From assembly GCA_964014485.1 (NCBI GenBank), contig CAXHAT010000093.1:1-28713 (forward strand): 28,713 nucleotides of DNA. The letters are read 5' to 3'. A program made the position numbers and the translations under genes. The stretch's first letter is position 1. Each line of letters opens with the position of its first letter. Below, piece by piece: positions 2,550 to 19,556 of this stretch. This DNA is from an uncultured Deferribacteres bacterium (GTDB lineage Bacteria; Zhuqueibacterota; Zhuqueibacteria; Zhuqueibacterales; Geothermadaptataceae). A model generated the notes under the pieces. The model saw nothing but the letters and a program-made list of their open reading frames with translations, had not been told where the DNA came from and made no database searches.

Positions 2550-5507
2550 TTATTGATTCGCCGCACTGTCAATTGCATTGGGCGCGGCTTGCGCTTCCAG
2601 CGTGCGTAAGCGGCTTTGCGCTGTTGTGTTCGTCGGGTCAAGCTCAAGCCACTTTCGCGTCAACTCCAGCCCTTCGTCGGCTTTGCCTTGAATCACATAG
2701 TGGCTGACGAGGTAATTGTAAATGTCAGACTTCGTCTTCAAGTCAATATTCTCATCATCTAAAACGGATTGCGCCAAAGATTTTGCACCTTCGAGGTCTT
2801 TGAGCTGATTTAGGTAAACGTCGAGAAATTGCAAGCGCTGCTCGAGCGGGAAAGCATCGACAAGTTTATCGACGCGTTTTTTGTACTCTTCCGGGCGCCC
2901 AAGCTGATTGTAGATTTGGCCGATGAACATGCTGATCTGCCAGTTCGTCGGCGGGATCACTTCTTCCGGCATCACTTCTTCCATGTGGTCAAGCGCCGCC
3001 AACGCATTTTCCTTTTGGTTGTTCGAGCGATAGTGTTCGACCAGCGAAAGATAGGCCGAACGATAATTGCCGAGCAGCGCCAGGATGTTGTCGTTGTAGT
3101 AAACCTCGGCATTGTCGAGGTTACGATAGTCGTAGCGTTCGGTCAGGTTTTTCTCGATCACTTCGGGGTCAATAAACCGCCGGTCAACCTTGACTGGCAA
3201 CACCTTGAAAGCAAGGCCGTCCATCTGCAAAAAGTCCTGTAAACCCACTTTGTTGTTATCCGCGACGGTCACCGCAAAGTAGATCGGACGTTTGAATTGA
3301 TTTTCGATGAGCAGACGCAGAATCATGATGTCTTGCACGCGAATCCCCTGGCCAAACAGGGTCGGCTGTATGGTTAGCTCGATAAAATCTTGATCCGGAG
3401 CCGCGAACGTCGAATCAACGGATTGAATTTTTTGGATCCATTGCCGTCGAACGTCCCGAGGCACGGGAATTTTCCGGGTGGTCGTTTTCCAGGCTTGCGG
3501 CGCAAGCTCATCGATTTGGCGATCCGTCAAACTTATCGGAACCTTCGGCTCCTCGTCGCGCAATTGCTTGATGTACCAGTTCGTGTTCAACAGGCTCAGG
3601 TTGACGATGCGGACGTCCGTGCGAATGCCGTAGACCGTTTGCAAAAACCAGAGCGGGAAGGTGTCGTTGTCGCCGTTGGTGAAAATAATGGCATTGGGTT
3701 CGCAAGTTTCGAGAATATTTTTGGAGTAATCATAAGCGACGAAATTACCCTGACGCGAATGATCGTGATAATTAAAAGCCAGCATTCTGCCCGGCACGGC
3801 CAGCAGTACGACAAGGGACACCACGCCCATCGCCAGCCGCTTGGTTTGCTCGACTTCCTTGAAGGCGTCCCGCACCAATTCGAGCACAAACGACATGCCG
3901 ATTCCGATCCAGAGCGCAAATGCGAAAAACGCCCCGGTGTAAGCGTAGTCTCGTTCCCGCGGCTGCGGGTCCTCCTGATTGAGATAGACGACAATCGCAA
4001 TTCCTGTGGCAATAAATAAAATCAGGATACTCAACGCCCGTCGCCAATCCTTGATAAAATGGTGCGCAAATCCAAATAACCCTAGCAAAAACGGCAAGCC
4101 CCACAAGCCGTTAAATGAAATCGTGTCGAGAATCGTGCCGTCAGCGGCTTTGTCCGTACCTTTGCCGATAAATTGCCAGCCGAAGTAGCGGATAAACATT
4201 TTCTTGATTTGATATTCCCAAACCGGCGCGCGACGGTTGGTGATCTCCCAATCGCCGTATTGCTCGCGATTCAAATAGCTGACGAATTTTTCCGGCGTGT
4301 CCGGCGCATTCTCATCGATGACGGGGTTGAGACCGGAGCGAACATAAATGACCGAATAAGTGGAATAGCCGACGAAAATCATTAAAATGCACATCAACGC
4401 CAGACCAAGCTCACGCTTCTGTTTTTTGACGGCGTTCCAGATTCCGGCGACGAGACCAAGAAGCACCAGGCCGACGAGATAGAAAGAAATTTCAATCATT
4501 TGCGGCACGCCTTTCACGATGCCCGGATAAACGATTCCAACGCTCAAAAGTGCGCCGAGGGTAAAACTCACTGAAGCGTGCAAACGTTCACTCTTCTCAT
4601 TCGCAGCGGATTTGTACATTGTGTAATGCAGATAAAGAAAGCCCGCCGTTAGAATTCCCGGCACCACCGGCAATTCGCCAAAAATCGGGACTCCTTCAAA
4701 CAAAGGTTGAAAAAGCCCGCCAATCAGCGCCGCCAAGCCAAGCTCTCCAAGCCCGAGCAAACCGCCGACAACCAAGCCGCCGAATTCGCCGAACTCATTG
4801 CCTTCACCCAACCCGAGAGAGCCGGTGCTTCGTTTTCTCAAATACATGATGAGAAAAACGGTGGGCAGTGCGAGCAGATTGAGCAAATGGACGCCCAGCG
4901 CCAGGCCAATCAGGTAAAAAATAATGACCAGCCACTTGTCGGAATCCATACGTTCGCTTTCCTCCGACCAGCGTAAAACCAGCCAAACCACAATCGCGGT
5001 GAAAAAGAGCGCGGCGGAGTAAACTTCCGATTCGACGGAATTGAACCACTGGCTATCGGAAAATGCGAAAGCCAGAGCGCCGATCGCGCCGCTGGCGTAT
5101 TGCATGATTTTCTTTTCAAAGTTGTCCGCCTTGCCCTGCCACATTTCGATCAAACGCACGATAATCAGAAAAGCGAACATGGCTGAAAACGCGCTCATCA
5201 GCGGTGACATAAGATTCACGCGCCAGGCGATCTCCACGCCTTCGGGCATGATAAAATTGAGTTCTTCCTTTGACATGAACATCGTGCCGAGGAATTCGGT
5301 CGGCAGTAGGGAAAAGATGCGCCCGGCAAGAATGTACAACGGCGACCCCGGAGGATGCGGCACGCCCAGCGTGTAAGAACAAGCGATAAACTCGCCGCAA
5401 TCCCAAAACGAGGTGGTTTGCGCCATCGTTAAAAAATAGATTAAAAAAGATACAAAAAACACCAGCGCCGCTGTCAAATTTCGCGGCGTTTTCAGCGCTT
5501 GAAACAT
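2550..5507 (-). CDS. DUF2723 / TMEM260-like (GT117-type) polytopic membrane glycosyltransferase with TPR-like C-terminus
   Basis: SFWDCGEF..CSYTLGVPHPPGSPLY, ESEVY, GVHLLNLL, YLNREQYG, PRERDYAY and FTNGDNDTFPLW motifs; many hydrophobic helices; helical TPR-like tail. ATG 5507 chosen because GGAGGG lies at 5514-5519. Confidence 0.85.
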   Translation of the reverse strand: MFQALKTPRNLTAALVFFVSFLIYFLTMAQTTSFWDCGEFIACSYTLGVPHPPGSPLYILAGRIFSLLPTEFLGTMFMSKEELNFIMPEGVEIAWRVNLMSPLMSAFSAMFAFLIIVRLIEMWQGKADNFEKKIMQYASGAIGALAFAFSDSQWFNSVESEVYSAALFFTAIVVWLVLRWSEESERMDSDKWLVIIFYLIGLALGVHLLNLLALPTVFLIMYLRKRSTGSLGLGEGNEFGEFGGLVVGGLLGLGELGLAALIGGLFQPLFEGVPIFGELPVVPGILTAGFLYLHYTMYKSAANEKSERLHASVSFTLGALLSVGIVYPGIVKGVPQMIEISFYLVGLVLLGLVAGIWNAVKKQKRELGLALMCILMIFVGYSTYSVIYVRSGLNPVIDENAPDTPEKFVSYLNREQYGDWEITNRRAPVWEYQIKKMFIRYFGWQFIGKGTDKAADGTILDTISFNGLWGLPFLLGLFGFAHHFIKDWRRALSILILFIATGIAIVVYLNQEDPQPRERDYAYTGAFFAFALWIGIGMSFVLELVRDAFKEVEQTKRLAMGVVSLVVLLAVPGRMLAFNYHDHSRQGNFVAYDYSKNILETCEPNAIIFTNGDNDTFPLWFLQTVYGIRTDVRIVNLSLLNTNWYIKQLRDEEPKVPISLTDRQIDELAPQAWKTTTRKIPVPRDVRRQWIQKIQSVDSTFAAPDQDFIELTIQPTLFGQGIRVQDIMILRLLIENQFKRPIYFAVTVADNNKVGLQDFLQMDGLAFKVLPVKVDRRFIDPEVIEKNLTERYDYRNLDNAEVYYNDNILALLGNYRSAYLSLVEHYRSNNQKENALAALDHMEEVMPEEVIPPTNWQISMFIGQIYNQLGRPEEYKKRVDKLVDAFPLEQRLQFLDVYLNQLKDLEGAKSLAQSVLDDENIDLKTKSDIYNYLVSHYVIQGKADEGLELTRKWLELDPTNTTAQSRLRTLEAQAAPNAIDSAANQ

Positions 5508-6592: not shown

Positions 6593-6631
6593 AAATTCCA
6601 ACAATCCATTATTCCAATACTCCAATCTCCA
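6593..6631 (-). repeat. Tandem 8-mer array nnAnTCCA (5 units)
   Basis: AAATTCCA ACAATCCA TTATTCCA ATACTCCA ATCTCCA, ending 8 bp from the recG stop codon. Confidence 0.85.
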
Positions 6632-8742: not shown

Positions 8743-8818
8743 TTCCCCATCGCTTTTTCAAAGAACACGAACCGGTGCGCAGCATCCCAGTCTCCCCCCT
8801 TCGAATGGGATATCGCCG

Positions 8819-8943
8819 GCTCGTTACCAAGCTTCGGCTTGGTAACGCAAATGTTCACGAAACTCCAGTTTCGCGAACGCTTCTGGTTCGAAACATGAGT
8901 TTCGCGAGCATCAGGGTTCCCAAACAGGAGCTTGGGAACCAGC
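8819..8943. repeat. Composite four-hairpin palindromic element (REPIN/MITE-like), copy 1
   Basis: CGTTACCAAGC-TTCG-GCTTGGTAACG, CGAAAC-TCCA-GTTTCG, CGAAAC-ATGA-GTTTCG and GGTTCCCAAAC-AGGA-GCTTGGGAACC; colinear with 12757-12875. Confidence 0.88.
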
Positions 8944-11443: not shown

Positions 11444-11585
11444 TCAACTCTCCAACTGCGTCAAACCGGTTTCAATCTTCTCCAAACTCAACTCAAAATC
11501 CTGCAATTTCGCGCGTTCTTTTTCGACGACTTATTCCGGGGCACGAGAGGTGAAGTTTTCGTTCGCCAGTTTGCAGCGCAGACCG
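11444..11585 (-). pseudogene. Duplicated 3' end of valS (last 47 codons) with an internal stop
   Basis: Ungapped match to 12898-13039 with 17 mismatches in 141 nt by manual alignment; translates GLRCKLANENFTSRAPE*VVEKERAKLQDFELSLEKIETGLTQLES*; CAA>TAA at 11531-11533. Confidence 0.93.
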
Positions 11586-12061: not shown

Positions 12062-12394
12062 TCAGTAACTTGCAGCGTCCGCGAGAACATCAGCCGCCCA
12101 TCGATTGATGCTTTTTCCTTTAACTTGCGCTGCATTGGCAACAGCGGCATGGACTTCCGGGGGAACGCGCAGCATAATTTTACCGGAATACGGCTTTTGG
12201 GGAGAGCGCCCCAGCTTTGCACATGTGTCGAGATAGTCGTCGACCGCTTCGATGAAAGCTTCGCGCAGTTCCGTAACGGTTGTCCCATGAAATCCCACAA
12301 TATCCTTGATCCCGGCGATATGCCCCACAAAGCAGCCGTCTTCATCGCTGTACTCGATTCTAGCAGCATAGCCTTTGTGCGTCATTGTTTTCAT
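12062..12394 (-). CDS. hicB: Type II toxin-antitoxin antitoxin, HicB family (RHH C-terminus)
   Basis: MTHKGYAARIEYSDEDGCFVGHIAGIKDIVGFHG..V.EL..AF.EAVDDYL..C...GRSPQKPYSGKIMLRVPPEVH...KSINRW; ATGA overlap with the hicA stop. Confidence 0.95.
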   Translation of the reverse strand: MKTMTHKGYAARIEYSDEDGCFVGHIAGIKDIVGFHGTTVTELREAFIEAVDDYLDTCAKLGRSPQKPYSGKIMLRVPPEVHAAVANAAQVKGKSINRWAADVLADAASY

Positions 12395-12645
12395 GGTTTA
12401 ACTCCCAGTTGTTCTAAAAAACGCCTGGCGTCTCGGACTTGGTAGGGCTTGGCTTCTTTGCGAGGGTGAGGACGATGAAAAGTTGCAACAACGTTTTGTA
12501 ACTCAAATCGCACCCTCGAACCTTTTCCTTCAACGACTCGCGCACCAAGTGAAATCAGTAGATTTTCTATCCGCCGCCATTCCAAATTTGACGGAACGGG
12601 CGTTTTGAAAATCGCTTCAAGCGTTTTTTGCTGCTGTTTATTCAT
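12391..12645 (-). CDS. hicA: Type II toxin-antitoxin mRNA interferase, HicA family
   Basis: KTLEAIF..PV..NLEW..IE.LL..LGA.V.EGKGSRVRF.L......FHRPHP.KEAKPYQV; ATG 12645 gives 84 aa. Confidence 0.95.
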   Translation of the reverse strand: MNKQQQKTLEAIFKTPVPSNLEWRRIENLLISLGARVVEGKGSRVRFELQNVVATFHRPHPRKEAKPYQVRDARRFLEQLGVKP

Positions 12646-12653
12646 CAACGATG

Positions 12654-12675
12654 ATGATAGCAAAATATGCCATCA
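12654..12675 (-). promoter_or_regulatory. hicAB extended -10 promoter overlapped by an inverted repeat (putative HicB operator)
   Basis: Minus strand TG-C-TATCAT lies 8 nt before the hicA ATG; IR TGATAGCA-N5-TGCCATCA (12655-12675, 7/8 match) covers it. Confidence 0.65.
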
Positions 12676-12756
12676 AAACCAATGGCCTTTTATACTGAAT
12701 TTGGTAAAATAATTTCCGCTTCTTCCAGCCGTGAGTTCATCGTAGCGGGTTTTCCG

Positions 12757-12875
12757 GCTCGTTACCAAGTTCCGACTTGGTAACGCATTTGTTCTCGAAG
12801 TTCTACTTCGCGCCATTGAATCGAAGTAGAACTTCGAGAACAATTGGGTTCCCAAACTCCAGTTTGGGAACCAGC
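12757..12875. repeat. Composite four-hairpin palindromic element, copy 2
   Basis: CGTTACCAAGT-TCCG-ACTTGGTAACG, CGAAGT-TCT-ACTTCG, CGAAGT-AGA-ACTTCG and GGTTCCCAAAC-TCCA-GTTTGGGAACC; the two halves are also inverted copies of each other; 22 bp from the valS stop. Confidence 0.9.
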
Positions 12876-12897
12876 ACAACCGCGAACTCCATGTATC

Positions 12898-15603
12898 TCA
12901 ATCTCTCAACTGCGCCAAACTGCTTTCAATCTTCTCAAGGCTCAACTCAAAATCCCGCAATTTCGCGCGTTCTTTTTCGACGACTTGTTCCGGGGCGCGG
13001 GAGGTGAAGTTTTCGTTCGCCAGTTTGCCGCGCAGGCCGTTGACTTGCTTTTCCAGACGCGATTTTTCTTTTTGCAATCGCTGCATTTCCAGGTCAACGT
13101 CGATCAAACCTTCCAGCGGCAGAAAAAGCTCGAGGTTTTTGACCACGCCGGTGGCGGCGAGGCGCGGTTTTTCGAGTTTCGCGTCAGCTTGCAATTCAGA
13201 AACGCGCGCCAGTTGGGCGAAATAGGGCTGGTTGCTTTGCAGCAGCAAGGCCGTCGTTTCATCCGCGCCGGAAACCATAAGCAGTGCGTCTTTTTGCGGG
13301 GGCACGTTCATTTCGCCGCGAATATTGCGCACCGCCATAATCGCCGCTTGCAGCAAGTCCATCTCCGTCTCAGCGTTTTTGCCCGCGAAAACCGCCTCGT
13401 TCGAGGGCCATTCGGCGATCATGATGCTCTCGTTCATTTCCGTCCCGATGTGGCTCCAGATTTCCTCGGTGACGAACGGGATGAAAGGCTGGAGCATGCG
13501 AATCACGCCGCGCATGACGAACGTGGCGGTGCTGAGGGTGGCGTTTTTCTGCGCTTCGTTGTCGCCGCGCAATCTTGGTTTGATGAGTTCCAGGTACCAA
13601 TCGCAGTACTCGCGCCAAAAGAAAGCGTGCAGCGCGCCGGTCGCCTCGTGGAAACGGAATTTTTCCAACGCGTTGGTGACGACTTCAACCGTCTCGGAAT
13701 AACGGCTCAAAATCCAGCGATCCGCCAAATCGAGCTGGCCGTCGTCGTTGGCTTTTTGAATGTCTGCCAGCGTCGCATTTTCGGTGTGCTGTTTTTCCAG
13801 CGACATGGACAAGAAACGAAACGCATTCCACAATTTGTTGGTGAAATTGCGCCCGATCTCGAAGTCCTTTTCGCCGAGATTGATGTCGTTGCCTTCGGAG
13901 GAAAGGTGCATCAGCGTATAGCGCACGGCATCGGCGCTGTACTGCTCGATCATCGCGAGCGGATCGATACCGTTGCCGAGGGATTTGCTCATTTTCCGCC
14001 CTTGAACGTCGCGGATGATGCCGTGCAAGTAGACGTTTTCGAATGGCACGTCCTTCATAAACTCCAGCCCGGACATGATCATGCGCGCGACCCAGAAAAA
14101 GATGATTTCATAGCCGGTGACGAGCGTGCTGGTCGGATAGAAATAATCCAGATCTTCGTTCTTTTCCGGCCAGCCGAGCGTGGAGAAAGGCCAGAGTTGA
14201 CTGGAAAACCAGGTGTCGAGCACGTCCGGGTCTTGCCGCCATTTTTCGGTCGGCGTGGAAGGGTCGGTGCGCGCGGCTTTGGCTTCGCCTTTTTCGTTGT
14301 ACCAGATCGGAATGCGGTGGCCCCACCAGAGTTGGCGCGAAATGCACCAGTCGCGAATGCTGGTCATCCAATGCTCGTAGGTTTTGTCCCAGCGACCTTC
14401 GGGCAGGAGCTTGATTCTGCCGTCTTTGACCGCCGCCAGCGCCATTTCCGCCAATGGACGCATTTTCACGAACCACTGCTCGGAAAGGTACGGCTCAATC
14501 GGCACGTGCGAGCGATAGCTGTGACCGACGCTGTTGGTATAATCTTCGATTTTTTCCAACATGCCGTCCTTTTTCAGCGCTTCGATGATTTTTTTGCGCG
14601 CTTCGAAGCGATCCAGTCCTGCGAGAAAGTCCGGGATCTGCAATTCGTCGCGATATTCTCCGCCCCTCGCTTCGGAACACATCGGCAGCACCTTGCCGTC
14701 GCGGTCGAGAACAATGATCATTTTCAAATTGTGGCGCTGGCCGATCTCAAAATCGTTCGGATCGTGCGCCGGAGTGACCTTGACAAAGCCGGAGCCGAAT
14801 TCCTTGTCAACGTGCTCGTCTACAACAAAATCTACTTCGCGATTGACGAACGGAATGATCGCTTTTTTGCCGACAAGATGTTGCTTTTCTTCATCATCCA
14901 GCGCAATCGCCACCGCCGTATCGCCGAGCAAAGTTTCCGGGCGCGTGGTCGCGACAACGATGTAATCGTCGGAGTCTTTGATGCGGTAGCGGATATGGTA
15001 GAGCCTGCCCTGAACTTCGCGGTGCTCCACTTCATCGTCGGAGAGCGCGGTTCCGGAGGCCGGGTCCCAGTTGACGATGCGCTGGCCTTTGTAGATCATG
15101 CCTTTTTCATAAAGGGCGATAAAAACTTCCTTCACAGCTTCGGAGAGCGTCTCGCTCATGGTGAAACCTTCGCGCTCCCAATCGCAGGCGAATCCAAGCT
15201 TTTTGAGTTGCTCGATAATGATGGCGCCGTGTTCTTCTTTCCACTCCCAAACGCGCTCTACGAATTTTTCCCGTCCCAGATCATGGCGCGTCAACCCCTG
15301 CTTTTTCAAATGCCGCTCAACCACCGCCTGTGTCGCAATACCGGCGTGATCGGTGCCGGGCATCCACATGGTTTCGAAGCCCTGCATTTTTTTGTAGCGG
15401 ATGAGAATGTCTTGAATGGTGTTGTTGTAAGCATGCCCAATATGGAGACGGTCGGTCACGTTCGGCGGCGGGATGACGATGGAATAGGGCTTTTTGTCCT
15501 TGTTCGGAACGCCGTGAAAATATTTATTTTTGAGCCAAAACGCATAGATGCGGTCTTCAACTTGTTTGGGGTCGTAATTCTTGGCAATTTCGCGCTGTGA
15601 CAT
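12898..15603 (-). CDS. valS: Valine--tRNA ligase
   Basis: PPPNVTxxLHIGH (HIGH), PGTDHAGIATQ, ATTRPET and VKVTPAHD editing-domain motifs, DWCISRQLWWGHRIP, DVLDTWFSS, KMSKSLGN and the C-terminal coiled coil KLANENF..RAPEQVVEKER. Confidence 0.99.
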   Translation of the reverse strand: MSQREIAKNYDPKQVEDRIYAFWLKNKYFHGVPNKDKKPYSIVIPPPNVTDRLHIGHAYNNTIQDILIRYKKMQGFETMWMPGTDHAGIATQAVVERHLKKQGLTRHDLGREKFVERVWEWKEEHGAIIIEQLKKLGFACDWEREGFTMSETLSEAVKEVFIALYEKGMIYKGQRIVNWDPASGTALSDDEVEHREVQGRLYHIRYRIKDSDDYIVVATTRPETLLGDTAVAIALDDEEKQHLVGKKAIIPFVNREVDFVVDEHVDKEFGSGFVKVTPAHDPNDFEIGQRHNLKMIIVLDRDGKVLPMCSEARGGEYRDELQIPDFLAGLDRFEARKKIIEALKKDGMLEKIEDYTNSVGHSYRSHVPIEPYLSEQWFVKMRPLAEMALAAVKDGRIKLLPEGRWDKTYEHWMTSIRDWCISRQLWWGHRIPIWYNEKGEAKAARTDPSTPTEKWRQDPDVLDTWFSSQLWPFSTLGWPEKNEDLDYFYPTSTLVTGYEIIFFWVARMIMSGLEFMKDVPFENVYLHGIIRDVQGRKMSKSLGNGIDPLAMIEQYSADAVRYTLMHLSSEGNDINLGEKDFEIGRNFTNKLWNAFRFLSMSLEKQHTENATLADIQKANDDGQLDLADRWILSRYSETVEVVTNALEKFRFHEATGALHAFFWREYCDWYLELIKPRLRGDNEAQKNATLSTATFVMRGVIRMLQPFIPFVTEEIWSHIGTEMNESIMIAEWPSNEAVFAGKNAETEMDLLQAAIMAVRNIRGEMNVPPQKDALLMVSGADETTALLLQSNQPYFAQLARVSELQADAKLEKPRLAATGVVKNLELFLPLEGLIDVDLEMQRLQKEKSRLEKQVNGLRGKLANENFTSRAPEQVVEKERAKLRDFELSLEKIESSLAQLRD

Positions 15604-15723: not shown

Positions 15724-16120
15724 TAGGCTTTAGGCTGTTAGACTGTAGACTATCAGGCTAAAAAAACGCCCGCTGATTCACCTTTTTCTGTAAATATAGC
15801 GACCATACAATTTCGAGTGACGCAACGCATTTAAAACCTAACCTGACGCGCCAGAGCCAGGCAAGCTAAGTTTTCGACGCTGCGGCTAAACGCAGAGCCG
15901 CGGAGTTCGGAGAGCTTCGCAGAGTTTTTTTAATACAATTTTTTGAAGTTCTGTTTTTGAATTCTCGCAGTTGCGATTTGTCCAAAATGCATCCAAAATT
16001 AAGTTTTTTCTGCGCTTCTCAGCGTCCTTTGCGTCTCTGCGTTTTGAAAAGTCTTGCCAAAAATGACAGAAAATAAAATGTCAGTAACTAACAGTCTTCA
16101 GCCTAAACAGCTAAAATCCT
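15724..16120. repeat. Two nested inverted pairs of short tandem arrays with no gene inside
   Basis: Outer: TAGRCT(G)-type 7/8-mers at 15724-15760 and reversed at about 16086-16120. Inner: CGCAGAG-type units at 15888-15924 and reversed (CTCTGCG-type) at 16008-16045. Confidence 0.75.
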
Positions 16121-16138: not shown

Positions 16139-16591
16139 ATGAAACGAGTTATCGCATTTTTGGCGCTAGCGCTGACAGGCGTCACAATTTACGGTTTTGT
16201 GTCACAAACGAATCTCTCAAAGGAGGAAAATGTGCAGCCGTCTTTGACGACAATTGCCGTTCGCGTGCATAATATGGACGCGATGGTCGCATTTTACACC
16301 GAGGCTTTTGGCGCGAAATTTCGCGAGGTCGATACGTTTGGGATTAAGTCGCAGTTTGGCGAAATGGCCGGGATTACGCTCAAACTTGTTCCTTTGCGCG
16401 ACAGCGCCGATTTTGAAGGGTACGGATCGCACCAGCCGGGATTTGTCGTGGAGAATGTCGAAGCCGTGATTGAAATCGCCAAAAAACACGGCGGACGCCA
16501 GGAAGGTGAGTTGATTCAAGAAAATGGCCGCGTTCACGGCGCGGTTCGCGATCCGGACGGAAATACGATTGAGCTTTATCAATCGGAGTGA
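16139..16591 (+). CDS. VOC (glyoxalase/bleomycin-resistance) family protein with N-terminal signal or anchor
   Basis: IAVRVHNMDAMVAFYTEAFG, GFVVENVEAV and VRDPDGNTIELYQ; AAGGAG/GGAG RBS; hydrophobic N-terminus. Confidence 0.88.
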   Translation: MKRVIAFLALALTGVTIYGFVSQTNLSKEENVQPSLTTIAVRVHNMDAMVAFYTEAFGAKFREVDTFGIKSQFGEMAGITLKLVPLRDSADFEGYGSHQPGFVVENVEAVIEIAKKHGGRQEGELIQENGRVHGAVRDPDGNTIELYQSE

Positions 16592-16639
16592 TGGAATCAT
16601 GGATTTGTGGATTGTTGGAATATCGGAATGATGGAAATT
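16584..16639 (+). repeat. Tandem 8-mer array YGGAnTnn (7 units)
   Basis: CGGAGTGA TGGAATCA TGGATTTG TGGATTGT TGGAATAT CGGAATGA TGGAAATT at exact 8-bp period. Confidence 0.9.
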
Positions 16640-17119
16640 TATCGACATTATTTGGCGGCGCTGGCTTATCGTTTTCAAAGCGCTGTTCGCGACGCTCCGG
16701 AAGATTTTGGCGATTTCCAGGCTGGGAACGGCGTGAGAACGCCGAAGGAAATCGTCCGGCACATGATTCAATTGATCCGGTTCGTCCGTCATTCATTGAA
16801 GCCGCCAATCGAAGTTGAATCAACCGAACCAAAAACTTTCGATGAAGCTATCGAAGGTTTTCACGGCGCCTTACTGCTGCTCGACAAGCTTTTTGCCGAT
16901 TCTGAAAAGCAATTTGACGGCGATAATCTTTTAAAACTGCTTCAAGGGCCGCTGGCCGACGCTATAACGCATATTGGCCAGCTTGCCACATTGCGGCGGA
17001 TAGCGGGCGCTCCAATTCCCGGCGAAAATTTCGTGGCTGTGCGTGTTGAGATTGGAAATGTCGGCGCCGATCAAAAGCTCGCCCGAAACGACAAAAACCA
17101 AGGTTCATCAAAAAGATGA
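16628..17119 (+). CDS. DinB/YfiT-family four-helix-bundle protein
   Basis: RHYLAALAYR, VRTPKEIVRHM and LLQGPLADAITHIGQLATLRRIAGAPIPGENF pattern; start ATG at 16628 or 16631. Confidence 0.8.
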   Translation: MMEIYRHYLAALAYRFQSAVRDAPEDFGDFQAGNGVRTPKEIVRHMIQLIRFVRHSLKPPIEVESTEPKTFDEAIEGFHGALLLLDKLFADSEKQFDGDNLLKLLQGPLADAITHIGQLATLRRIAGAPIPGENFVAVRVEIGNVGADQKLARNDKNQGSSKR

Positions 17120-17126
17120 CTGAGCA

Positions 17127-17158
17127 CAAATCCAATAATCCACAAATCCAGCATTCCA
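17127..17158 (-). repeat. Tandem 8-mer array nnAnTCCA (4 units), inverse of 16584-16639
   Basis: CAAATCCA ATAATCCA CAAATCCA GCATTCCA, 7 bp after the DinB-family stop. Confidence 0.88.
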
Positions 17159-17276: not shown

Positions 17277-19556
17277 ATGCTCTCGCGTTTTCGATTTGCA
17301 TTCATTTTGCTTTCAGCACTTTTTCTGCTGGCCATGGCTGGCTCTGGCGAAAACGGTAAGCCAATTCTTGGATTAACTGAGAAACAAGCGGCTTCTCAAC
17401 ACGAGCTGGAACGGCAATTCGACAGTCATCTCAATCGTGAAAACCTGTCGCAGTGGATGAAATTTCTGACTTCGCAGCCGCAGCCGGTCGGATCGCCGAA
17501 AAGCAAGGAGAACGCGGAATGGGTGGCGGAAAAATTCAGGTCGTGGGGCTACGAGGCGGAAATTGAAGTTTTTCATGTGATGTTTCCCACGCCCAAAATG
17601 CGTTTACTCGAATTGATCGAGCCAACCAAATTCACAGCAAAGTTGATGGAGAAACCAGTTGAAGGCGACGCTTCCTCCGCTCAAACCGATCAAATGCTGC
17701 CGCCTTACAACGCCTACTCCGCCGACGGCGACGTCACGGCTGAATTGGTTTATGTCAATCAAGGGATTCCCCGCGATTACGAAGAATTGGCGAGGCGGGG
17801 CATTGATGTGAAAGGCAAAATTGTAATCGCGCGCTACGGCGGCTCGTGGCGCGGCATCAAGGCCAAAGTTGCGCACGAAAAAGGCGCGATTGGCTGCATT
17901 CTTTATTCCGACCCGAAAGACGACGGCTACATGCAAGGCGACGTTTACCCCAAGGGCGCCTATCGCAATGAAACGGGCGTGCAGCGCGGCTCCGTGCTCG
18001 ATATGCCGCAATACCCCGGCGACCCGTTAACGCCTGGCGTCGGCGCGAAGGAAAATACCGAGCGCATGTCGATCGAAGAGTCCCCGACGATCATGAAAAT
18101 TCCCGTTCTGCCAATTTCCTACAGCGACGCCTTACCGCTTTTGAAAGCGTTAGAAGGCCCGGTCGCTCCGGCTTCCTGGCGCGGCGCTTTGCCGATCACG
18201 TACCACATTGGCCCCGGCCCGGCGAAGGTTCATCTCAAAGTGGAATTTAGCTGGGATTTGACCCCGGCGTACAACGTGATCGCCAAAATGAAAGGCGCAA
18301 AATATCCGGATCAATGGCTGATTCGCGGCAACCATCGCGACGCCTGGGTGCACGGTGCGGCGGATCCAATCAGCGGCACGGTTTCAATGATGGAAGAAGC
18401 GCGTGCTATCGGCGAGTTGGCAAAAGCTGGCTGGAAGCCGAAAAGAACTTTGATCTACTGCTCGTGGGACGCGGAAGAACCGGCGCTGCTCGGTTCTACG
18501 GAATGGGCGGAATTTCACGGCAAGGAATTGAAAGAAAAGGCTGTCATTTACATCAACACTGACGGCAGCGGGCGAGGATACTTGGGCATGGGCGGTTCCC
18601 ATTCTTTGGAAAAATTTATCAATCAAGTCGCGCGTGATGTGGCTGATCCGCAAAAAGACATGAGCGTGGCGGAGCGGACAAGAGCGGCTCGCATCGTCTG
18701 GGGCGGCCCGACGCAACGGCGCGAGGCGCAAAATCGCGGGGATTTACGAATCGGCGCACTTGGCTCCGGATCGGATTACACGCCTTTCATTCAGCACTTG
18801 GGAATCGCTTCGCTGAATCTCGGATTTGGCGGTGAAAGCGGCGGCGGTTCTTACCACTCCGCTTACGACACTTTCGAACATTACACGCGATTCGGCGACC
18901 CGGGATTTCATTACGGCGTGACTCTGGCCAAAACCACCGGCTACAGCATGATGCGGCTCGCGAACGCGGAAATTCCGCCGTTTGAGTTCGGCAATTTCGC
19001 CGAGACGGTTGGTACTTATCTCGAAGAAGTCACTCAAGTTGCCGATAAAATGCGCAAGGATACCGAGCAGGAGAATAAGATCATCCGCGAAGGGTTTTAT
19101 GACGCAGTGAATGACCCGAAAAGGCCGCTCGTTACGCCGAAGCCCAAAGACCCCGTGCCGTTTTTGAATTTCGCGCCGCTGCAAAACGCGCTGGCCAATT
19201 TGAAAGAAAGCGCATCGAAATACTCGTCTGCCTCGAAAAAACTTGCCGCCTCGGAAAATTCGCTCTCAGCTTCAGAAAGCCGGAATCTTGCCAGGCTCGT
19301 TTATTCTGCTGAGCGCGTTTTAACCCGCGAAAAGGGCTTGCCGCGCCGTCCATGGTTCAAACATCATATTTACGCGCCCGGATTTTACACAGGTTACGGC
19401 GTGAAAACGCTGCCCGGCGTTCGAGAAGCATTGGAGCAGCGCGACTGGCAGGAAGCGGAAGAATATATCGACATTACTGCAAAGGTTATCGCGGAATATG
19501 CCGCACACATTGACAAAGCGACCGACACATTAGAATCGATTCTTGACAAAAACTGA
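17277..19556 (+). CDS. M28 family peptidase, glutamate carboxypeptidase II / folate hydrolase-like (PA and transferrin-receptor-like dimerisation domains), secreted
   Basis: Signal peptide; PPYNAYS..GDVTAELVYVN.G, KIVIARYG...RG.K, VQRGSV, PGDPLTPG; metal and catalytic motifs GNHRDAW, ADPISG, WDAEE, YINTD, GSGSD and YHSAYD; RPWFKH.IYAPG..TGY. Confidence 0.93.
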   Translation: MLSRFRFAFILLSALFLLAMAGSGENGKPILGLTEKQAASQHELERQFDSHLNRENLSQWMKFLTSQPQPVGSPKSKENAEWVAEKFRSWGYEAEIEVFHVMFPTPKMRLLELIEPTKFTAKLMEKPVEGDASSAQTDQMLPPYNAYSADGDVTAELVYVNQGIPRDYEELARRGIDVKGKIVIARYGGSWRGIKAKVAHEKGAIGCILYSDPKDDGYMQGDVYPKGAYRNETGVQRGSVLDMPQYPGDPLTPGVGAKENTERMSIEESPTIMKIPVLPISYSDALPLLKALEGPVAPASWRGALPITYHIGPGPAKVHLKVEFSWDLTPAYNVIAKMKGAKYPDQWLIRGNHRDAWVHGAADPISGTVSMMEEARAIGELAKAGWKPKRTLIYCSWDAEEPALLGSTEWAEFHGKELKEKAVIYINTDGSGRGYLGMGGSHSLEKFINQVARDVADPQKDMSVAERTRAARIVWGGPTQRREAQNRGDLRIGALGSGSDYTPFIQHLGIASLNLGFGGESGGGSYHSAYDTFEHYTRFGDPGFHYGVTLAKTTGYSMMRLANAEIPPFEFGNFAETVGTYLEEVTQVADKMRKDTEQENKIIREGFYDAVNDPKRPLVTPKPKDPVPFLNFAPLQNALANLKESASKYSSASKKLAASENSLSASESRNLARLVYSAERVLTREKGLPRRPWFKHHIYAPGFYTGYGVKTLPGVREALEQRDWQEAEEYIDITAKVIAEYAAHIDKATDTLESILDKN

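Follow-up and report, generated by a model that had tools for sequence, protein, structure and literature searches.

The window analysed here, positions 1 to 28,713 of contig CAXHAT010000093.1 from an uncultured Deferribacteres bacterium, contains a VOC/glyoxalase-family gene (16139–16591, + strand; PF00903, E = 3e-11), a gene predicted to encode a protein of DinB/YfiT fold (16628–17119, +; 163 aa from ATG16628) and, as downstream context outside the element described below, an M28 peptidase gene (17277–19556, +; PF04389, PF04253 and PF02225). The DinB gene is enclosed by two inward-facing arrays of a degenerate octamer, TGGAnTnn. The left arm (16584–16639, +), which reads CGGAGTGA TGGAATCA TGGATTTG TGGATTGT TGGAATAT CGGAATGA TGGAAATT, occupies the entire gap between the VOC and DinB genes; its first unit supplies the last codons and the stop (TGA, 16589–16591) of the VOC gene, and the ATGATG at the DinB start (16628–16633) also lies within its units. 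The initial annotation had described this layout correctly but had counted seven YGGAnTnn units; six are full, and the seventh is imperfect, with A at position 6. As that annotation also stated, four reverse-complement units (right arm, 17127–17158, −) begin 7 bp (CTGAGCA) past the DinB stop codon (17117–17119). Runs of at least four units occur three times in the window compared with none in 200 shuffles. The third, a single arm at 6593–6624 (−) that begins 15 bp past the recG stop codon, had been missed; a palindromic repeat of a different kind, belonging to the multi-copy family GTTCCCAAAC...TTTGGGAAC, lies on its inner side.

The window contains several other repeats. The GTTCCCAAAC...TTTGGGAAC family, which we take to be linked to RAYT genes, is also present at 8816–8943 and 12754–12897, and a CGCAGAG-rich palindromic repeat with dozens of matches in the genome, presumably linked to GxxExxY-family genes, lies upstream of the VOC gene (15888–16044). 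A 133-bp direct repeat (11453–11585 and 12907–13039; 91% identity) is a duplication of the valS 3' end. Between its two copies lie a HicA/HicB toxin-antitoxin pair (12062–12663) and one ORF of no recognized family, likely a mini-island that integrated at the end of valS. In the immediate surroundings of the DinB gene, we found no attC boxes (RYYYAAC...GTTRRRY) between 16501 and 17300, in keeping with the earlier statement that the arrays are not attC sites, and no Rfam matches between 15600 and 17400. There is no target-site duplication at the outer ends of the arrays (the longest word common to the 20-bp flanks is GAGC, located off the ends), and inspection of the window's ORFs revealed no integrase.

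The enclosed ORF itself matched no Pfam or NCBIfam model. Its designation as DinB holds at the level of the fold, because DinB_2 (PF12867) is matched by eight of 52 aligned homologues and because its AlphaFold model (pLDDT 92) ranks DinB/YfiT structures first in Foldseek (TM 0.54–0.63; best E 0.006, none at E ≤ 0.001); by its predicted structure, therefore, the product is a DinB four-helix fold. Members of the DinB/YfiT superfamily carry a metal-binding histidine triad. H44, D110 and H114 are conserved in this protein (numbering from ATG16631), with Asp where the middle His is expected. Unless translation starts at the in-frame GTG located within the array at 16607, its N-terminus is the shortest of the 52 proteins, with five or six residues ahead of the conserved His compared with at least seven in all 51 homologues. 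The closest DinB protein in the phylum (genome G109, 53% identity) is encoded in a different, array-free context.

The two DinB arms belong to a large family. In the whole genome (8.4 Mb in 465 contigs), runs of at least three units number 181 at period 8 and zero or one at each of periods 7 and 9 to 13; a looser definition yields 198 arrays at approximately 140 sites, of which the DinB arms are two. TGGA and the T at position 6 are almost fixed, a core that the search pattern partly imposes, while positions 5, 7 and 8 vary, with C the rarest base at all three and nearly absent from position 5. The initial annotation had suggested testing whether plus and minus arrays pair at gene-sized distances. 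Inverted pairing was borne out genome-wide, but the distance was not: 79 of the 92 neighbouring inward (plus-then-minus) pairs are short intergenic hairpins with loops of at most 68 bp. Seven pairs have loops of 111–495 bp and six are spaced by at least 3193 bp; the 495 bp at DinB therefore falls in the tail of long loops. Gene boundaries from our own ORF caller place no array element inside a called gene and give a median of 11 bp from a stop codon to the TGGA arm behind it. Nine of 101 arms supply the upstream stop codon exactly as at VOC. Elements avoid divergent gaps, which make up 11% of gaps overall yet hold three of 109 elements (P = 0.0016). The unit length of 8 is not divisible by 3, and a stop codon is present at positions 6–8 in 247 of 772 units; an arm therefore closes the reading frames that enter it, and so the insertion of an array would be tolerable. 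Arrays are located at contig ends in 26 of 198 cases, often as perfect tandem runs, which indicates that assemblies break at these elements; the perfect runs at contig ends may be artefacts.

The variable positions show how little of these elements is preserved. Adjacent units agree at variable positions in 33% of comparisons, the same as the random value of 33%, consistent with the earlier assertion that the arrays are not slippage microsatellites, and, within an element, the two arms complement each other imperfectly. Among 172 arms compared, shared runs of at least three units occurred only among near-perfect tandem arms and in one additional pair; no two mixed-unit arms are copies of one another, and their units behave as independent draws. 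Propagation by exact copying, as in REPs or MITEs, therefore does not apply to this family, which keeps no more than the TGGA-T core and the period of 8 bases. Template switching was rejected as the source of the second arm, as arms agree at variable positions at 0.457 versus 0.462 after shuffling. Among 21 loops of at least 20 bp in short hairpins, none had a convincing match elsewhere in the genome except two that hold other repeats. No paralogous empty site was found within the genome. The presence of rare units in both arms did not prove diagnostic of a single element, and neither is pairing: the DinB arms are predicted to pair across the ORF in both MFE and centroid structures (z −3.8, 20 shuffles) and to outperform swapped arms in 49 of 50 and 36 of 37 comparisons, but the genome's true short hairpins pair no better than swapped arms (mean rank 0.51).

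The gene that the arrays accompany is a different one. Eight genes in the genome match TIGR02436, a family of four-helix-bundle (4HB) proteins. One of them, at C111:5091–5582, is a PF05635 gene with TGGAnTnn arrays on both sides. By eye, each of six others (on contigs C58, C39, C250, C205, C9 and C67) lies beside a different short tandem repeat, for which a period of 7–8 is clear on at least one side in five of the six cases. This pattern suggests that, within a single genome, each 4HB protein clade has one repeat code. The eighth match is weak and lies beside a reverse transcriptase on contig C135; partly on the basis of this match, we take Avd, the accessory protein of diversity-generating retroelements, to be kin to PF05635. 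In addition to the Avd-like gene and the reverse transcriptase, the locus in question (L539, G000:C135:6200–9800, where G000 denotes the genome containing the window) has an AAC-rich stretch that is repeated and, upstream, a gene whose 3' end matches; it is likely a diversity-generating retroelement.

The association between this clade and the arrays extends beyond one genome. The initial annotation had mentioned similar arrays next to four-helix-bundle genes in other genomes, and the C111 clade indeed forms an arm-gene-arm unit at 10 of its 14 loci in a set of 61 genomes. It had also suggested looking for a gene family co-distributed with the arrays: the C111 clade is present in 12 of the 61 genomes, all 12 of them array-positive, and in none of the 36 array-free genomes (related genomes in this count are not independent). 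Thirteen array-positive genomes have no C111-clade match, including the array-rich G014, G027 and G051; G014 is 99% complete and has 362 array matches. In GTDB genomes of several phyla, strong hits to the clade were bracketed in 19 of 66 cases by the strict motif and weak hits in none of 10; under a looser test for GGA at period 8, used without a shuffle control, the values were 44 of 66 and 0 of 10. The 4HB units span 477–530 bp between arms, similar to the 495 bp at DinB, and lie between different neighbouring genes in different genomes. Where G011 has a 4HB unit, the corresponding gap in G014 and G027 is without a gene and contains a hairpin of a different kind, made of 7-mers. Around the cognate 4HB gene in the genome studied here (L021/L516, G000:C111:1049–5659), four consecutive gaps are filled by array elements, a hint that elements spread preferentially near this gene. 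Judged from these sequence comparisons, the TGGAnTnn arrays appear to be a genome-wide family of inverted octamers that tracks one PF05635 clade. Our literature search, which reached few subscription journals and covered main articles, found no paper tying PF05635 genes to tandem arrays.

Comparison of loops and orthologous sites indicates what these hairpins can hold and how they change. Five of the seven long loops (111–495 bp) contain other repeats, and two of the inserts are elements of 200–300 bp that are 92–94% identical to copies elsewhere; the DinB loop is the longest of the seven, and DinB is the only intact non-4HB gene in them. One orthologous hairpin is approximately 110 bp longer in G027 than in G014. 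Hairpin loops accept inserts. In a related genus, a given gap is often occupied by an element in each of the four species compared, and these elements are sometimes inherited with substitutions and sometimes consist of wholly different units and loop. A sister genus shows the empty state at one site, with a gap of about a dozen bases, indicating that whole hairpins are gained or lost. Single arms at orthologous sites arose through decay (G024) or replacement by another repeat (G011); counts of the repeats found inward of single arms were discarded, as several such arms proved to be full hairpins. By inspection, T seems to predominate at position 5 in G014 and G in G027, orthologous units included, which looks like a genome-specific shift of the code. 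In G014, small antitoxin-like genes lie directly inside a plus arm at L417:9011–9600 (weak UPF0150-like match) and L431:7473–8512 (RHH_1), the former being missing from the orthologous gap in G024.

Since the arrays track a different gene, DinB is likely a passenger rather than a mobile cassette of its own. The explanation we favour, with a confidence somewhat above even, is that DinB occupies the loop of a single array element as a passenger, lodged where a few bases, another repeat or a 4HB gene would normally be. It would have entered by a rare insertion or by bracketing in one step, and its entry would have removed the native leader and first codons, such that the array now provides the start. 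The 4HB protein, as an oligomer, would recognize the repeated cores, its likeliest substrate being single-stranded RNA or DNA, and may help a nuclease or reverse transcriptase to place new elements. A multimeric reader of repeated sites is suggested by the conserved core, the fixed period and the free spacer bases, together with the pentameric ring formed by a solved relative in PF05635, a family whose function is given as unknown in the portion of PMC4990558 available to us. A single-stranded substrate is suggested by the position of elements in transcribed gaps behind stop codons. Neither DinB arm retains a residual inner partner, and DinB is the only gene in the genome with a pure inward-facing arm on each side, an arrangement with a chance expectation of 0.05 under uniform shuffling and 0.03–0.2 given local clustering.

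Alternatively, VOC and DinB could have arrived as a pair, with separate elements settling in the two gaps that flank DinB and then both losing the inner arm, and the bracket would then be coincidental; the deletion of the upstream inner arm would also have taken the first DinB codons. Genes flanked by arrays on both sides are more frequent than expected (seven versus 1.7, P = 0.0014), an unpaired or weakly paired arm is present in 37 of 105 occupied gaps, and arms have been lost at the orthologous sites in G024 and G011. Moreover, in one metagenome contig (L072), a VOC gene whose product is 54% identical immediately precedes a DinB homologue, and arrays are absent, so the VOC-DinB pair may predate the arrays. 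This scenario nevertheless requires two clean losses without residue, whereas a pure single arm is found in only 17 of 105 occupied gaps. In addition, a quick, unfinished tree places the L072 DinB well inside a clade remote from the window protein, L072 is the only one of 95 tested loci at which the VOC query was found upstream, and no DinB adjoins any of four VOC homologues that are closer, although one of these has just 90 bp of downstream sequence; the L072 adjacency may therefore be convergent. More distant VOC-type neighbours were seen by inspection at several DinB loci, and the VOC searches yielded 0/401 and 3/401 genomes in two other phyla and none among plasmids. We regard separate colonization of the two gaps as somewhat unlikely.

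The initial annotation had proposed a one-gene DinB cassette moved in trans, and a working, non-autonomous arm-DinB-arm cassette, excised and reinserted by the 4HB system, would agree with several observations: its layout and size match those of the 4HB units, those units lie between different genes in different genomes and are missing from the orthologous gap in G014 and G027, and DinB has a GC3 of 0.48, near the 10th percentile of similar-sized genes. The comparative data argue against it. None of 96 DinB loci (95 homologues plus the closest in the phylum; 85 of the 95 with at least 100 bp on both flanks) has arrays, including five in array-rich genomes, although many of the 95 probably come from array-free genomes, and none of the 95 has even two in-phase cores on either side. 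The unit is present as a single copy and lacks a target duplication, and array-centred stretches of relatives' DNA totalling 1.04 Mb contained no second bracketed non-4HB gene. The empty VOC-M28 allele that the initial annotation had suggested looking for did not appear at 16 M28 loci of relatives, all from other genera, where neither VOC nor DinB was found within 1.5 kb. Nor was excision, likewise a suggested check, detected in low-depth contigs of three DNA runs from one study. Two apparent joints were rejected: that at 16622–17137, where one side is just 22 bases long, is compatible with several other hairpins, and that at 4653–5292 on L516, with 21–22 bases on its shorter side, contains the loop sequence of a hairpin on C57. 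Viral contigs contained no gene-sized array pair at 131 loci (full flanks in 80) and short hairpins at three. With no empty allele, target duplication or excision found, a mobile DinB cassette is unproven, and we consider an active one improbable.

A further possibility concerns the origin of the units rather than the position of DinB. A reverse transcriptase with adenine-specific errors could rewrite the units, as in diversity-generating retroelements, with the 4HB protein acting as Avd, which the accessible part of PMC7826257 describes as a pentameric cofactor of adenine mutagenesis. The behaviour of units as independent draws fits such a writer, as does the scarcity of C at the three variable positions, which resembles the spectrum in that part of PMC7826257. 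However, position 4 is fixed as A (in 756 of 771 units, a value partly imposed by the search pattern), no reverse transcriptase was evident by inspection in the flanks of C111-clade genes, and some orthologous sites (G014/G011 and G027/G011) inherit their units with ordinary substitutions. The genome's six reverse transcriptase matches include none on C111 or C93. We therefore consider a writer of this kind very improbable.

In a more general form of the passenger interpretation, PF05635 proteins would be the specificity factors of a new class of dispersed elements, each clade having its own code of 7–9 bases and placing inverted arrays behind stop codons, and any gene that came to lie between two arms would be carried, the DinB unit being a captured example without a transposase or integrase of its own. 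We hold this broader proposal to be unlikely as a whole. The TGGAnTnn arrays are apparently an undescribed repeat system, and the link between one PF05635 clade and one degenerate octamer code at approximately 140 sites makes both binding and mobility directly testable. PF05635 is widespread and includes a solved pentamer, and has no known function according to the same portion of PMC4990558; for short tandem repeats in intergenic DNA that jump from phylum to phylum, the available sections of PMC4679880 offer no mechanism. The DinB locus shows that a loop can house an intact, unrelated gene and that a stop and a start codon can come from the same arm. Should loop cargo move, this would be a new route of gene transfer; otherwise, the locus is a rare accident of an unexplained repeat family.

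An integron cassette consists of a single small, promoterless accessory gene next to an imperfect hairpin. The DinB unit resembles one in being a single small accessory gene that lacks its own promoter and adjoins an imperfect hairpin, but it has no attC core boxes, has arms on both sides and is not accompanied by an integrase among the window's ORFs. It differs from MITEs and composite transposons in lacking a target-site duplication at its outer ends, and the family differs from diversity-generating retroelements in its fixed A at position 4 and in the lack of a reverse transcriptase match on C111 or C93. Another parallel is provided by the TAACTGA heptamers of Beggiatoaceae, Cyanobacteria and Bacteroidetes, described in the accessible text of PMC4679880 as approximately 170 intergenic sets of two to six tandem units with no evident mechanism. 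Like the arrays, they are short, intergenic and tandem, sometimes overlie the upstream stop codon and are patchily distributed across phyla, but they are exact 7-mers in direct repeat rather than degenerate 8-mers in inverted pairs (PMC4679880, in part). A term search of the same text gave no mention of helix bundle, S23 or PF05635. Intervening sequences of 23S rRNA are excised by RNase III. As outlined in the portion of PMC4990558 at hand, they likewise place a gene, S23p of the PF05635 family to which the C111 gene belongs, in the loop of a long stem; the arrays differ from these in lying between protein genes (as the DinB pair does, outside rRNA), in having a stem built of octamers, in occurring at approximately 140 sites that lack the PF05635 gene and, at one locus, in enclosing a DinB fold. 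Our data suggest a further similarity to REPINs, which in the consulted part of PMC3116915 are short, inverted extragenic doublets with a RAYT gene, reduced to singlets by decay or insertion. Both families comprise many extragenic inverted doublets that are predicted to form hairpins, have a variable spacer and a cognate gene nearby, and give rise to singlets by the same two routes. REPIN arms, however, are near-identical palindromes (PMC3116915, same part), whereas the arms described here are tandem, degenerate octamers of which those with mixed units are never copies; their cognate gene belongs to PF05635 and is not a RAYT transposase, and one of their loops holds an intact enzyme gene.
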